From Escherichia coli (GTDB lineage: Bacteria > Pseudomonadota > Gammaproteobacteria > Enterobacterales > Enterobacteriaceae): a DNA stretch of 64,000 nucleotides. Below, one piece after another: positions 42,501 through 48,500 of the stretch (within the stretch, counting starts at the first letter, position 1; each line of letters begins with the position of its first letter). The DNA lies in assembly GCF_044324785.1 (NCBI RefSeq), contig NZ_CP172128.1. One strand, given 5' to 3'. Position numbers: made by a program.

Positions 42501-45500
42501 AAAGAAAAACTGGAGATTATAAGGGATATTATTCGAGAGACGCTGTTGGGTAATGCTGCTCTTATTGTTCTGGCAGCCATGGTTCCGGTTGTACTGGTGA
42601 AACCATGGGATTCGATGACATTTATTTTTATGGGGGCCGTGTGTGTTTCTTTTGCAGTCATTCTGTTTTGGCTGGTTTATATAGTTTGTTTGTATATAGG
42701 AACGCTTGTAAAGAATATTTTTATAAGGATTTTTGCTTTTTCTATTTGGGCCCTTTCTGCTGAGGGGGCAATTATTTATAACATGATAAAGATATTATCA
42801 TAGAAAAGCTGTTTATATATTGGCTCTATGTAAAAAGAATGGTACCACTGCCAGAGTCCCCGTCGTTATTTTTATGCGTTGGGGCCATGAATGTTTATTT
42901 GGCATCCCTTATCTCGCCCATCAGCAGGCGGATATGCAGCCAGGTGTCATGATCCAGAACAGGTGATGGTGTTACCATGCAAGCACAGTGCCCGATGGCG
43001 AGCGTATCAAGGAAGCGTTTTGCATCGTTGGCACTTTCATATTCACCAGTATGGATCAACATCCACCTTTGCCCCAACGCTGATTCGGTGTGAATTGGTT
43101 GCGAGAATGCGATTGTGTAAACGTCTTCAATTGTAACGATACGATTATTATCCGCAGTGGCTGCATGGGAGGATAAGTGTTTCATAAAGGGTCTCATAGC
43201 GTTAATTTTGATCAAAAATTATTTGTTCAGGAGGAGGATATGAAAATACTGTTCGCTTTTGTCATGAACTGGCTGTTTGTTAACGGACAAATCATGACCC
43301 GTTCATCAATGTTTGCGGGTAGCTCGCCTGGTGTGGGGACGCGTTCACCCCGCTGAGCAGCCTGGGCCAGTGCGCGCAGCAACAATACGCTGGCGTGAGA
43401 TATTGCCAGTTCCCGGGTTTCAGCACGGCTTTCAAGGTCGAAATCGTGCAGTGTCACAATGAACACTCCGTTTCTGTTTCTGACAGTTGCAGGGTAGGGA
43501 ACAAAATAAGGGGAAATTTTGCTGGTCTGTTTACGCCTTGCATCGAGTTTACTGACCAGGTGATATGCCCGGAGGTGTGTGTACCGTTTCAACATGTTCA
43601 GTGAGCGGTGACCGGAAATGGCTGCAATCTCCATAACGTTCAGTGTGCCGAGCTCGAACAGACGGCTGATGGCCTCATGGCGTAGATCGTGAAAATGCAG
43701 ATTTTCTATTTTCAGATCCAGAAGAGCGGTACGCCAGGCGCTTTTGAAACCGGACGAGGTGTAATTGAACACATTGCCGTTTATCTGTTGTGGCAGAATT
43801 TGCAGGTAGTTACGTGCTTTCCGGGAGAGTGGTACGTCGCGTGGTGAGCCATTTTTCGTTTCAGGAAGATGCGCCACGCCGTGCTGCAAATCGATGTGTT
43901 CCCAGCGTAATGAGAGAATTTCTCCCTGGCGCATTGCTGTTTCCAGAGCCAGATGGAAGATAACGTAGAGCTGCGGATTTTTGTCCCTGAAATAGCGGGA
44001 AAGGCGGCGTTCTTCACCAGAAGTCAGTCGGCGGTCGCGGCCATTACTGATTTTCGGTTTTCGGACCAGTTCAACAGGATTCATACGGCATGTTCCCCAT
44101 TCCACACGGGCGATATTGAATAATGATGATAAAAGGGCAAGTTCAAGACGGACGGTATTTCCGGTGATTTGACGCCCTGTTCGTGGGTTAATTTGAGCTA
44201 AACGCTGATCCCGGTAACCGGCGATATCAATGGTAGTGATTTCATCCATATAGCGCTCGGCCATAGGGTGACGTTTAATCACATTGACGCGATAAAACTC
44301 CTGCAGATGACCTTTTTTATGGACGGAAACGGTTTTCAAGTATTTGTCCAGCGCCCGGTTGAGAGTCATTTTGCGAATTTTGATTTTTCGAAACATATCT
44401 GCCTTCCACGATAAAAACAGGGAAGGTAGGAATAGTGAAACGGAAATGCAATATCGCCGTGCCAATCCGGTTCGTGGAAAAATGCAGGAAAAGGCGATAT
44501 TGAAATCGTCAAAGTAACAGCATCAAAACTCCGCTGGCCTGGTGCTACTGCCACCTGCCCAATGGGTAAGAAGGTGATCGGGGGTGGTGCAGAATGCAGC
44601 TCTGGAATTGGCTTTATCTGGCTTGTCCGTTCAATACCTGTAAACAATAATGCCTGGTATGGCTTTTGCGATACGACAGAACACATCATTGGAAAAATAA
44701 CTGTACATGCCATTTGCCAATGACAAAGTGATTTACTGGCAAACCACAATGTAACTACATTTCCCCGTCAGATCGTTCCTGTTTGTACCGCCGTGAAAAT
44801 TGTATTCATCGTAGTAACCACACTTCACAATCCTGTTCGAATCATATGTCGCAACAGAACCTGCGAAGTAATTTGGCTTCCAGCCATGCGGGTTTTCAGC
44901 ATTGCTGACGCTCCAGGTACACTGGCTGGCAGAAAAACCAGACGGCAAAGGTAGTCGTTCTCCATTTGCGATTTTTCCTGTCAGAACAGTGCTACCTGAT
45001 ACCCTAATCCACGAACCGGATTGGCACGGAGGCCAGTGCCAATCCGGTTCGTGGAAGGGTAACAAAGAAAAGGAACATTTCACTGTTTACGGAACGAGTG
45101 GATGTGGACATACAGTGTCCTATGCAGTGTGTCCGAGTGGTAGTACTTTGGTTTCAGGCGGATATCAATTAACCGCCTGGTCGCAGGACAACCGTAACCC
45201 GTTCAACTCACCGGACTCAACTTATCCCGACTGGGCGAACAATCGCTGGATTGTTGGTGGAACAGGGACCATCACAAGCTGTTTTCGCTCTGTAGCGTTA
45301 TGCGCCAGATGATTTCTGGCACATTGTTTCAACTTCATTACGGTTTAGTTGAATGCGGTGCTACATCTGATATGCATAAACCGAGAACACCCCTGAGCCA
45401 CAAGAGTAGTTTTGGGCCGGATAAGAGGTGATCTGATAAGTTGCGCCAGCAGGGACAGCAAAAGAGATGAATGCTGTCTTCCCATAAGATGGGTTATTAC

Positions 45501-48500
45501 TCGCATTTGTGCTAATCAATGCCCCTGCAACGTATCCCTGCAATCTGGATGTGTTAGCACAATCTCCCCCGGCGGAACCACCATTCCCTCCAGAGGCGTA
45601 AACAAACAGCGTACCACTTCCCGTATTGCGACCAGTAAATGATCCTCTGTGTGATCCAAGATTACTGTAACTACCGTTAGAGGAACCGGAAGTTCTCCAC
45701 ACACCGGATTGGCACTGGCCTCCGTGCCAATCCGGTATCTGGACAACGACAAAAATGAACTTCACTACCAGTACATACAATATCGGGAAAAATACTCGTA
45801 ATCTGAGCATTGGCGTACATGCGTACTGCTCGTGGACATACCTTAATGGCTCGCCTTTTGGTGGTTTTCAGCAGATATACGCCGACCAAAACAAGGTTTG
45901 GTATGTGAATAATTATGCGTGGGGAAATTATGAGTCCGGTGGCACAATTACAGTGACATGCCTCAACCTTCCTGGTGCCGGAATCTAACCAAAAGGGCAA
46001 CAGTAAGCATCGACGTGCTCTTCATCAACACCATCTCCGATGCCGTACATTCTTGTACCTGTCATGACGTACCCGGCAGGGCACTGAATCGGCTTGTAAT
46101 AAATAGAACCTCCACTTCTGCCACCGATAAAATGTGCGGAGGTCGCTTCATACCATTTACAGGCAGAATAGTTCACTTTATTGCCTCCAACCCACACACC
46201 GGATTGGCACGAAAGTATTGCCCCTTTACTGTCGCGGCCTACAAGTCCGTCCGGTGAGCAGGAAGTACCTGCGGTGGCTGTTTTATCCAGCTGTAAATAC
46301 TCACCCGTGGAAAGACGCCCCTCAGACCGGACAGTTCCACCACTGACTTTTCCTCCTTTGAGCTCTCCTTCGGTTGTGATCCCTTTGTTGTTAACAGCAC
46401 GTATCCATTGGCTGTCCGTCATGGTGAAACCGCCTCCGTGCGTCGTGTTCATCCACCCCTTGTTGTTTCTGGTGATAAGCCAGCCGTCTTCGCTGGTTAT
46501 ATCGCCTTTCACCGTGGCTTTCTGACCATTGAGGTTACCGGCGTTATTGATGTCATTTCCGCTCATGTTGATAGCTGTGTGCATCTGGTTCAGCTCTGGT
46601 CTCCCCGGGACCTGGAAACGATACAACCTGTCGCTTTCCTGCAGATCATCACCCGTCATGACGACGGCAATGTGACCTGCCGAACAGGTGAGTCCGTAAT
46701 CCCCCGGTTTGTCTGTCCAGGCGCCGAATGCGCCGGTTGCTGTTCCGTTTTTACCAATATAACCACCCAGCCCGGGAAGCTGTCCTGCCACACTGCGCAG
46801 ACCATCTTCTTTGATATTCTGCCCCCCTGTTGAGCAGGTCAGGGCTTCAAGACGTCCTGTAGTCTGGTTACGGCGGATACCCGTGATATAACTCTGCCCA
46901 AACGGAGAATGATTAAATCCCTGTTTCAGGTATCCCTTGCGAATCAAATCATCGGCTGTAAAGTTTGCCGGAAGGCTGCCGTTGTGCAGAGTGGCATTGT
47001 TATCGGCAATGTAATTTCTGGCTGCGGTATTGTAGGCATCTGCATGAGAAGCAGCACTCTGGTAAAGCTGTTCATTCAGCCAGTTTTCTATTTCGGAATA
47101 AATCAGCGGCGTGGCGATACCAATCACTATCAGTCCCGCCAGTATTTCAAGCAGAATAAAACCTTTGTCGTCATCGTGTCTGAACTTTTTCACGTGAATA
47201 TCTCCGAAGTGCGGAAAACGGAATCAGGGAGGAGGGTTAGTGCATACAGTGATGCGCAGAGAAACGGGGCGAACGGCAGTGCCTGCTGATGTCTGTGACG
47301 GCAGAAGAGGAGGATAAACAGAAATGCCCCGGAAGCTGCGGCGGTGATTAGCAGCGGCGTGTGTTGTGGCTGTGTCCACATTGCAATTCCTGCTATCAGG
47401 AATACATCACCAAGGCCGAGTGCTTCTGTTCCTTTTGCCGTTATGAAAAACTGCCGTAGCAGGTATGTCATGCCGAACCAGAGTGATGCGTTGAGGAGGC
47501 TGTATGTGAGCTCCTCCAGGCTGTACCTGAACGCTGCCCCCAGAACAATCAGTGAAAGCGTGAATATCCGGGGAAGCCGACAGACGGCGATGTCCGTCAG
47601 CGTCATTACAGTTAATAATCCCGTCAGAATGGAAAGGAATAACAGCCCCGTGGCTTCAACACCATATGCGCCGTTGAGGCTGACACTCACTATGGCCAGA
47701 AGGCAACACACGTACACCACCGGCCTGGGCGGCCGGGTGTCGTGTACTGCTGACAGGTAGAGAGCGGCGGTGATGTATGCAAGATAAAGAATAACCGCCA
47801 GGATGATGATTATTATTGTCATGCTCAGTAATGCGCTCACCGTCACCTCGTATTTATTAATATTGTCTGAAATACCGGTTGTGGATTTTTCGGGCATATA
47901 TCATGCGCCGGGCTGTGTTATTTTTGCTGAAACCGGCGTTATAGCTGCCCAGGCATTCCCAGTTAACGCCGCAGCGTTGAAAATGGCGGGCCAGTATCCA
48001 GGCACCGGTATGAATATTCAGGCAGGGCTTTTTAAGCAGTTCATCCTTGTTTTTAATGACGCCCAGTTTTTTCAGTTCAGGAATATGCACTGAATTAATC
48101 TGCATTATTCCGTAATCCGTACTGATGATTTTTCCGGATTTGTTTTTATTGTGATTTATCGCAGTGGCGACCAGGCCGCTTTCCTGCTGTGCAATGGTTT
48201 TCAGAAGCTCAGGGGCAATCAGGTAACGTTTTCCGGCCTGAATAAAACAGGAATCGAGATGATTATTATTCATCACAGATGCGATTGATGTGTTACTGAA
48301 TAAAAGCAGGACAGAGAGATATAACCATTTCATTATGATAATCCCGGCAGTGACAGCATCCTCTGGTATTTAAGGATGCTGTCCGGAAACATTAGCTGTT
48401 TGTTTCAAGGGTGATGTTATTTTTGTCGTTACTACATACTGTTACGGGATCCACAGTAGCCGGGGCGGTATTCATGATTTTGGTAAACATGGATGAACTG

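Follow-up and report, generated by a model that had tools for sequence, protein, structure and literature searches.

Between a recombinase gene and a pilus gene of an Escherichia coli plasmid lies a block of short repeats in alternating orientation, and the question it raises is whether this block is a complete DNA inversion system and, if so, of which kind. We analyzed it in a 64,000-nucleotide stretch of contig NZ_CP172128.1 (hereafter the window). An earlier note had read it as a complete shufflon with an Rci recombinase and six alternative PilV C-termini. Six sfx sites, a recombinase of the Rci lineage, a Shufflon_N domain, in-frame tails and a location in a pil operon support that reading, and we consider it very probable (about 93%) that the locus is a complete R64/R721-type Rci/sfx shufflon, carried by a conjugative plasmid of the I-complex whose backbone is IncK2/Z-like. 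It is an ordinary shufflon of a known kind; thousands of public plasmids already carry the same system in annotated form. The features are as follows, with the basis for each in brackets.

43227-44396, minus strand: rci, shufflon-specific tyrosine recombinase, 389 aa (Pfam and R64/R721 identity)
44459-44477, plus strand: sfx repeat R1, triplet tcg, the rci-proximal end of the shufflon (exact match)
44460-44723, plus strand: silent tail, 87 aa, paired with D' in the 'BD' segment (R64/R721 homology)
44733-45026, minus strand: silent tail of D' type, 97 aa (R64/R721 D' homology)
45009-45027, minus strand: sfx repeat R2, triplet tcg (exact match)
45028-45035, no strand: 8-bp inter-segment spacer ggaggcca (either orientation in relatives)
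45036-45054, plus strand: sfx repeat R3, triplet tcg (exact match)
45037-45312, plus strand: silent tail 'X', 91 aa (without R64 or R721 counterpart)
45361-45714, minus strand: silent tail of A type, 117 aa, glycine-rich (R64/R721 A homology)
45697-45715, minus strand: sfx repeat R4, triplet gtg (exact match)
45716-45723, no strand: 8-bp inter-segment spacer tggcctcc (reverse complement of the spacer at 45028-45035)
45724-45742, plus strand: sfx repeat R5, triplet atc (exact match)
45725-45988, plus strand: silent tail of C type, 87 aa (R64/R721 C homology)
45985-47193, minus strand: pilV as now assembled, 402 aa (constant region 46211-47193 plus C'-type tail 45985-46209)
46192-46210, minus strand: sfx repeat R6, triplet gtg, where the pilV constant region meets the expressed tail (exact match)
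47190-47897, minus strand: prepilin peptidase (pilU-like), overlapping the pilV start (A24 family/prepilin peptidase in collinear relatives)
47857-51588, minus strand: upstream thin-pilus genes (NZ_CP123060.1 annotation via 99.5% collinear alignment)
48392-48928, minus strand: major pilin PilS (same annotation and alignment)

A pattern search for GTGCCAATCCGGTNNNTGG returned six copies with 0 mismatches (44459+, 45009-, 45036+, 45697-, 45724+, 46192-) and no seventh copy at up to 2 mismatches; shuffles gave an expectation of 0.06 matches, and six were reached in 0 of 100. An sfx site consists of a 7-bp core, GTGCCAA, and a 12-bp right arm, TCCGGTNNNTGG (PMC9045228, PMC5350095), and from R1 to R6 the variable triplets read tcg, tcg, tcg, gtg, atc and gtg. 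The sites alternate (+ - + - + -) and bound three segments of 569, 680 and 487 bp between rci and pilV. The positions, alternation and three segments claimed earlier were confirmed, as were the two 8-bp spacers that are mutual reverse complements.

The adjacent gene encodes the recombinase that had been proposed for this shufflon: the protein matched Pfam Phage_integrase (PF00589, E=7e-25) and was 89% identical to R721 Rci. It shared 75% identity over 373 aa with R64 Rci, including the conserved motifs AMRQGE, HDLRH and GH...RYTH. In relatives with an identical gene, a 'site-specific integrase' is annotated at these coordinates. Its presence therefore stood, with one small correction to its start: the mechanical open reading frame extends to TTG 44465, inside the first repeat, and annotated homologues together with the R64 Rci alignment place the predicted start at ATG 44396, which gives 389 aa. 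An NCBIfam search of Rci, PilV, PilU and two small ORFs returned only generic Xer/integrase models and weak GspG matches, with no Rci- or PilV-specific model above the cut-off.

On the other side of the repeats, PilV carries a prepilin leader (KG/FILLE) and two matches to Shufflon_N (PF04917, E=4.7e-61 and 1.9e-47) that span residues 37-332. The reading frame crosses repeat 46192-46210, which encodes CQSGVW as residues 329-334, and continues to the C-terminus ...DEEHVDAYCCPFG, just as the earlier note had described for read-through of R6 into the third segment. PilV was 41% identical to R64 PilV and 62% to R721 PilV, and its C'-type tail was 83% identical to R64 C'. An identical protein is annotated as the PilV tip adhesin in two relatives (L009, L010).

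Translation from each repeat in the frame G/TGC CAA TCC GGT NNN TGG gave six open tails of 87, 97, 91, 117, 87 and 74 aa, all of which begin CQSG(S/V/I)W and stop in mid-segment (at 44723, 44733, 45312, 45361, 45988 and 45985). Each segment accordingly holds two convergent partial ORFs, and the window holds six alternative C-termini, five of them silent and the C'-type in pilV, both as claimed before. When the interior of each segment was shuffled 20,000 times, the two frames ran open as far as in the real sequence in 2, 0 and 3 cases, so such openness is rare by chance. All six tails occur fused to pilV in some public record. Compared with their R64 homologues the tails had a dN of 0.11-0.36 and saturated or nearly saturated synonymous sites. 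Where it could be computed, dN/dS was 0.05-0.31; values so far below 1 indicate purifying selection.

The suggestion that the alternative tails would match R64 PilV segments held for five of the six, at 56-83% identity (66-98% to R721 tails), and failed for X, whose best match among R64 tails was just 30% identical. Tail X is instead found 100% identical and fused to pilV in the IncI2 plasmid NZ_CP130557.1 (L019), and an 84% version is present in four-segment IncK2 plasmids. The D'-type tail, which L012 and L015 carry fused to pilV, was 80% identical to R64 D' and 88% identical to R721 D'; the A-type tail, fused in L001, L002 and L014, was 81% and 98% identical to the respective A tails. For the C-type tail the values were 83% and 94% to the respective C tails, and this tail is joined to the pilV constant end at 99.2% in H76-H78. 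The tail at 44460-44723, fused to pilV in L008, was 56% identical to an R64 tail (L003, 13715, minus strand) and 66% to the R721 BD-segment partner. Its naming is in conflict: the R721 literature names the BD segment as B' plus D' (PMC5430464), which makes it B'-type, whereas PGAP calls a 98%-identical homologue 'shufflon protein B'.

The surroundings are those of a conjugative plasmid. The shufflon lies at the distal end of a type IVb thin-pilus (pil) operon, beside the tra genes of an I-complex plasmid. Both flanks are collinear at 99.5-99.9% with annotated genes, one with pilU, pilT, pilS, pilR, pilQ ... pilL and the other with traE, traF ... traY. The genes at 47857-51588 encode a lytic transglycosylase, PilS, a PilR-like platform protein and a PilQ-like ATPase. 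The backbone is 99-100% identical to plasmids typed IncK2/Z in PLSDB; the window stops just short of the repA of the collinear reference, and the plasmid group is termed IncK2/Z-like from this regional identity.

Among the classical references, R721/TP114 (IncI2) comes closest, ahead of R64. R721 shares the three segments, six sfx sites and 8-bp spacers ggaggcca/tggcctcc (PMC5430464), the B'/D' ('BD') and C/C' segments, an Rci at 89% and an A tail at 98% identity, and TP114 has been reported to carry the same triplets, gtg, atc and tcg (PMC9045228). The differences are that R721 and TP114 are IncI2 plasmids with MPF_T, whereas the IncK2/Z-like backbone carries an MPF_I transfer system; that the R721 PilV constant region is just 62% identical; that the partner of A in R721 is A', where the window has X; and that TP114 has four segments and eight tails. 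The prototype R64 (IncI1; NC_005014) shares an Rci at 75%, the 19-bp repeat core and arm with 8-bp spacing, homologues of A, C, C', D' and one B-type tail at 56-83%, and the gene order pilV-shufflon-rci-traE. It differs in having four segments, seven sites and seven tails, with D' alone between direct repeats, and in its triplets (acc, acg, act, cgg against tcg, gtg, atc) and spacers (tggcctac/gtaggcca). Furthermore, R64 lacks X, its 85-aa and 73-aa tails are absent from the window, alignment of its PilV constant region shows 41% identity and a 26-aa gap, and the window has about 1 kb with two small ORFs between traE and rci.

Published IncK2 shufflons carry tcg, atc, gtg and ttg repeats, and their number of sites varies from two to eight (Seiffert et al. 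2017, PMC5350095). Those of pDV45, pDV10, pTMSA1088 and others share with the window the repeat types e=tcg, f=atc and g=gtg and probably the plasmid group, but the order e-e-e-g-f-g is absent from the seven orders in that report (PMC5350095). In the four-segment IncK2 plasmids L004 and L005 the B'/D' and C/C' segments are 99% identical, and the window's X/A segment stands in place of two segments, one pairing an X-like tail (84%) with a tail of B type, the other an A-like tail (79%) with a 129-aa tail. Origin of the X/A segment by deletion from this four-segment form was considered and rejected, as nucleotide identity was 79% in the X half and 72% in the A half.

Public plasmids that are identical or nearly so at this locus (for example pJD053-NDM-99K, NZ_CP095791.1; pE32-3, NZ_CP119733.1; p1_020022, NZ_CP032880.1; pNDM_M25631H, NZ_CP123060.1) match it at 99.5-100% across rci, the three segments, the pilV constant region and neighbouring genes, are annotated with an integrase and a shufflon PilV, and differ from it only in the order and orientation of segments and spacers. 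We compared the arrangement in the window with those of L001, L002, L008, L009 and L014, five plasmids whose segments are 100% identical to its own. These six sequences displayed six different segment orders or orientations, with all breakpoints at sfx sites. Both spacer orientations were present among them, and such flipped spacers imply inversion of segments in groups. In addition, each triplet always travels with its tail, implying that strand exchange takes place 5' of the variable triplet.

The same comparison bears on whether the assembled order is real. Shufflon misassembly is documented, clones being heterogeneous (PMC5430464), and reads from a mixed population could have been collapsed into an order or pairing that no single molecule carries. 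We regard this as highly improbable: the internal pairing and the lengths of 569, 680 and 487 bp match the independent 100%-identical relatives, every join is a canonical sfx, 8-bp spacer, sfx junction without a chimeric segment, and ordinary inversions suffice to derive the order from the arrangements in the relatives. Somewhat less remote, but still quite unlikely, is that the shufflon is structurally complete yet frozen in this host, with Rci unexpressed or inactive and the C' tail effectively fixed. Decay does occur among relatives, one of which has a single segment (L012) and two of which have two (L010, L013; L013 also without rci in the distributed gene table), and a promoter and terminator scan of 43000-47400 found nothing above chance, with fewer sites than in shuffles. 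Against a frozen locus, rci is full length, with its catalytic Arg, His-x-x-Arg and Tyr aligned to those of R64 Rci; the gene matches that of L002 at 100% DNA identity, and the same protein accession occurs in relatives with different arrangements. Very low shufflase levels, moreover, suffice in TP114 (PMC9045228).

A phage-type switch, in which a serine invertase of the Gin/Cin/Min kind inverts tail-fibre segments, was also weighed. Multiple-inversion tail-fibre systems exist, and PGAP names one related cassette 'phage tail protein'. However, the sole adjacent recombinase belongs to the tyrosine family (PF00589), which refutes serine-invertase multiple inversion (Gin/Cin/Hin/Min), and the neighbouring genes belong to the pil and tra sets. 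A search of the six tails against the PHROGs families gave no match (0/6), so a detectable relationship to phage tail fibres is rejected as well. We give this explanation no weight.

For the Rci/sfx shufflon that we favour, published work on R64, pCT and TP114 suggests how it would operate. By analogy with those plasmids, Rci would be the enzyme acting at these sites and could recombine any two of the six inverted sfx sites, thereby inverting the three segments singly or grouped; in TP114, deletion of rci locks the shufflon (PMC9045228). Whichever cassette ORF adjoins site 46192-46210 would supply the C-terminus of PilV, the type IVb thin-pilus tip adhesin. In the assembly as deposited the C'-type tail would be expressed, and the B'/B-type, D', X, A and C tails would be stored silent. 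Tail choice changes recipient specificity in liquid mating in R64, pCT and TP114 (PMC5430464, PMC4083329, PMC9045228, PMC10654706), the tails A, A', B, C, C' and D' have known receptors in the LPS core (PMC10654706), and a knockout of rci in the IncK plasmid pCT lowered liquid transfer to Salmonella (PMC4083329). We infer from this work that the receptors are LPS-core sugars, that different tails may bind different core structures on recipients, and that switching would alter recipient range. A donor population could thus sample several recipient specificities in liquid mating.

With six adhesins available, recipients with different LPS cores might be reachable in liquid or gut conditions, which is of relevance in that close relatives carry NDM and CMY genes. 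For shufflon biology the locus as such offers nothing new. It explains assembly differences of such plasmids within a 1.75-kb stretch, and plasmid comparisons should mask 44459-46210.

A side observation concerns IncI2 plasmids, in which the X/A segment is 98-99.7% identical at the nucleotide level to that of the IncK2/Z-like window, and the B'/D' segment is 99.6% identical in one of them. In the same plasmids rci is just 82% identical and the pilV constant regions barely align. Homology to the window breaks exactly at sfx sites or at the gap between the two stops within a segment. Near-identical cassettes beside an rci of 82% identity point to possible cassette exchange between plasmid groups. 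We tentatively propose, while thinking it somewhat doubtful, that sfx-bounded cassettes are horizontally exchangeable modules in addition to being invertible, swapped between co-resident plasmids. A limited literature search on whether plasmids exchange shufflon cassettes returned nothing relevant, which is no proof of novelty. The route of such a swap might be Rci itself, or recombination over the 46-bp sfx-spacer-sfx junction. If exchange is active, recipient range could be acquired horizontally as a cassette, a point of modest importance, and the shufflon would double as a platform for acquiring adhesin cassettes. The rare X tail, possibly the 'D' variant of TP114, would then spread by cassette swapping.

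A pattern search of the window found six perfect copies of the 19-bp shufflon repeat (sfx), GTGCCAATCCGGTNNNTGG, where 0.06 would be expected in shuffled sequence, and no seventh copy at two or fewer mismatches. Alternating in orientation, these copies delimit three segments (569, 680 and 487 bp), between which lie the 8-bp spacers ggaggcca and tggcctcc, reverse complements of one another; the variable triplets run in the order tcg-tcg-tcg-gtg-atc-gtg. The repeats, segments and spacers described in the earlier note were thus confirmed. When a frame was read inward from each repeat (G|TGC CAA TCC GGT NNN TGG), six open frames of 87, 97, 91, 117, 87 and 74 codons were obtained, each beginning CQSG(S/V/I)W. 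The paired frames of every segment are convergent, with stop codons 0-50 bp apart, so that translation bore out the two in-frame partial ORFs per segment claimed before; when each segment interior was shuffled 20,000 times, the two frames both remained open to the observed extent in only 2, 0 and 3 shuffles.

Repeats of the window and the PilV tails read from them, compared with the seven tails taken from R64 (NC_005014)
44459, plus strand: 87-aa tail; R64 counterpart a B-type tail, 56% identity
45009, minus strand: 97-aa tail; R64 counterpart D', 80% identity
45036, plus strand: 91-aa tail (X); no counterpart among the seven R64 tails, best match 30% identical
45697, minus strand: 117-aa tail; R64 counterpart A, 81% identity
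45724, plus strand: 87-aa tail; R64 counterpart C, 83% identity
46192, minus strand: 74-aa tail, expressed; R64 counterpart C', 83% identity

The comparison with R64 that the earlier note had suggested therefore gave clear counterparts for five tails (56-83%) but none for the sixth, X. Judged by its relatives, X is nonetheless a genuine PilV end, because the IncI2 plasmid NZ_CP130557.1 has a 100% identical copy joined to its pilV and more distant relatives (35-53% identity) are annotated pilV ends in Serratia, Citrobacter and Salmonella plasmids. Between the tails and their R64 homologues dN is 0.11-0.36 while synonymous sites are saturated or nearly so, which indicates that the silent copies are maintained as coding sequence. 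The tail letters are the PGAP labels of homologues, and for the B-type tail they clash with the literature, in which the R721 partner of D' is B' and not B (PMC5430464). Silent cassettes are annotated inconsistently in six of the compared loci (L004-L007, L009, L011), where spurious upstream extensions over the spacer are common, and the labels given to identical tails range from “hypothetical protein” and “prepilin, shufflon protein A” to “shufflon protein B/C/C'/D'” and “phage tail protein”.

The recombinase and pilin genes are those expected of a shufflon. The rci product (43227-44396, 389 aa) carries a tyrosine-recombinase catalytic domain (PF00589, E=7e-25) and is 89% identical to R721 Rci and 75% identical to R64 Rci, with which its Arg, His-x-x-Arg and Tyr motifs align; the start codon, going by homologues and the R64 alignment, is the ATG at 44396, whereas the mechanical ORF extends to a TTG at 44465. 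On the minus strand, pilV (45985-47193) passes through the repeat at 46192-46210 into segment 3 and ends in ...DEEHVDAYCCPFG, as had been read from the sequence at the outset. Its product combines a Shufflon_N constant region (PF04917) with a type IV prepilin leader (…DDKG|FILLE…) and shares 41% identity with R64 PilV and 62% with R721 PilV. Together, the tyrosine recombinase, the Shufflon_N PilV, the sfx sites and the tails support the earlier interpretation of a complete Rci shufflon.

As natural replicates in place of reads, we used the window and five public plasmid loci (L001, L002, L008, L009, L014) that have all three segments in common, with 100% identical tails. These six sequences show six different segment orders or orientations, and the breakpoints among them fall at the repeats without exception. 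Both orientations of the 8-bp spacers are represented, a result that requires inversion of segments in groups. The tail fused to pilV is C' in two of these sequences (the window, L009), A in three (L001, L002, L014) and the B-type tail in L008; further records have pilV joined to D' (L012, L015), X (L019) or C (H76-H78). Going by these fusions, each of the six tails is in use somewhere. The triplet is constant for each tail (atc for C; gtg for A and C'; tcg for X, D' and the B-type tail), and since it is never parted from its tail, the comparison implies that strand exchange must fall 5' of it, in line with the published 7-bp core GTGCCAA (PMC9045228, PMC5350095). Segments also get lost, as two remain in L010 and L013 and one in L012.

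On the proposed mechanism, Rci would recombine inverted sfx sites pairwise, inverting segments alone or in groups, and inversion would join one of the six cassette ORFs to the pilV constant region in the correct reading frame. That Rci would be the enzyme acting on these sites, that the tails would bind LPS core structures, and that switching would alter recipient range in liquid are carried over from published work on R64, pCT and TP114. In TP114, rci deletion locks one form and rci in trans brings shuffling back (PMC9045228); receptors have been assigned to A, A', B, C, C' and D' (PMC10654706); and an rci knockout of the IncK plasmid pCT reduced transfer to Salmonella in liquid, whereas transfer to E. 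coli was not lowered (PMC4083329). By homology, the predicted ligands of the window tails would be GlcNAc-beta(1-3)-Glc for A, GlcNAc-beta(1-7)-Hep for C, Glc-alpha(1-2)-Glc/Gal for C' and GlcNAc-alpha(1-3)-Gal for D'.

The arrangement most resembles that of the IncI2 plasmid R721, which likewise has three segments, six sites, the same spacer sequence and the B'/D' and C/C' segments (PMC5430464), although A is paired there with A' and here with X. R64 differs more, with four segments, seven sites, other triplets, and D' alone between direct repeats. IncK2 shufflons are reported to carry two to eight repeats of the types tcg, atc, gtg and ttg (PMC5350095), and the triplet order of the window is absent from the seven IncK2 orders listed there. 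Public records hold identical segments annotated as shufflon PilV, and a megablast of the region matched 2,319 plasmid records and, among 5,426 complete E. coli genomes, 1,287, so the shufflon is ordinary. The observation is confirmed and its interpretation supported; both the system and its plasmid group are already known, and public databases contain identical copies. A 129-aa tail missing from both the window and R64 is found in L004 (2666-3394), L007 (2563-3291), L010, L011, L013 and L015; PGAP labels it “phage tail protein”. Its partner in many IncK2/Z and IncI1/B/O plasmids is a divergent tail of the A type (79%), and no studied homologue was identified for this further adhesin variant.

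Cassette identity does not parallel backbone identity when the window is compared with IncI2 plasmids. Nucleotide identity of the X/A segment (45036-45715) is 98.1-99.7% in three of them, one of which, L019, holds the B'/D' segment (44459-45027) at 99.6% as well.

IncI2 cassette loci from the nucleotide comparison with the window
L019: 4500-5756
L020: 4001-4680
L021: 4001-4680

The rci genes of these three plasmids are only 82% identical to that of the window, and the alignment of their pilV constant regions is limited to the last 131 nt; together with the near-identical cassettes, this points to sfx-bounded exchange between incompatibility groups. The complete X/A segment is rare (26 plasmid records, the only ones with a full-length X half), while over 400 other records share the A half alone, at ~98% identity; the ones listed are ~49-66-kb plasmids. 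Homology of the A half sets in at positions 331-333 of the segment, within a few bases of the A-frame stop (position 326); that of B'/D' to R64 likewise ends in the gap between two stop codons, and each half of segment 1 matches a different R64 segment. With homology breaking at these gaps, the half-cassette looks like the evolutionary unit, and both half and whole cassettes appear to have been re-assorted between plasmid groups, with Rci and homologous recombination as the candidate agents. A search of one literature library found no paper on such re-assortment, which is no proof of novelty. In the window, the stop-stop gaps of segments 2 and 1 lie at 45312-45361 and 44723-44733.

The shufflon flanks are collinear with pNDM_M25631H (NZ_CP123060.1) at 99.5-99.9%. 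In the annotation of that plasmid, the other genes of the type IVb pil operon, including those for a prepilin peptidase, a lytic transglycosylase and the major pilin, lie upstream of pilV, and TraE, TraF and I-type transfer genes lie beyond rci. The nearest typed plasmids are IncK2/Z; the window ends just short of the replicon. Between traE and rci lie two small hypothetical ORFs, 42483-42803 (+) and 42895-43185 (-), which are kept in IncK2/Z relatives and gave no NCBIfam match; R64 lacks them, its traE-rci distance being only ~150 bp.

Relative to pNDM_M25631H, the window has a ~2.5-kb insertion at 23650-26180, directly downstream of a traU-like ATPase gene (20477-23533, minus). It carries IS66-family ORFs, two of which (23679-24551 and 24600-25292) are parts of one tnpC-like gene that is thus probably frameshifted; on either side, ~10 bp of the reference align, which suggests a target-site duplication. 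Positions 1-5896 are unmatched in the compared part of the same plasmid. An IS2-like (IS3 family) orfA/orfB pair lies at 2456-3729, and an IS256-family transposase in two ORFs at 4263-4712 and 4809-5471. The region around Hok/Gef-family genes (13776-14914, against 16554-17692 of the public plasmid locus L016) appears to be duplicated, since it has two ~419-bp copies that share ~94% identity and cross-align when the window is compared with the reference.
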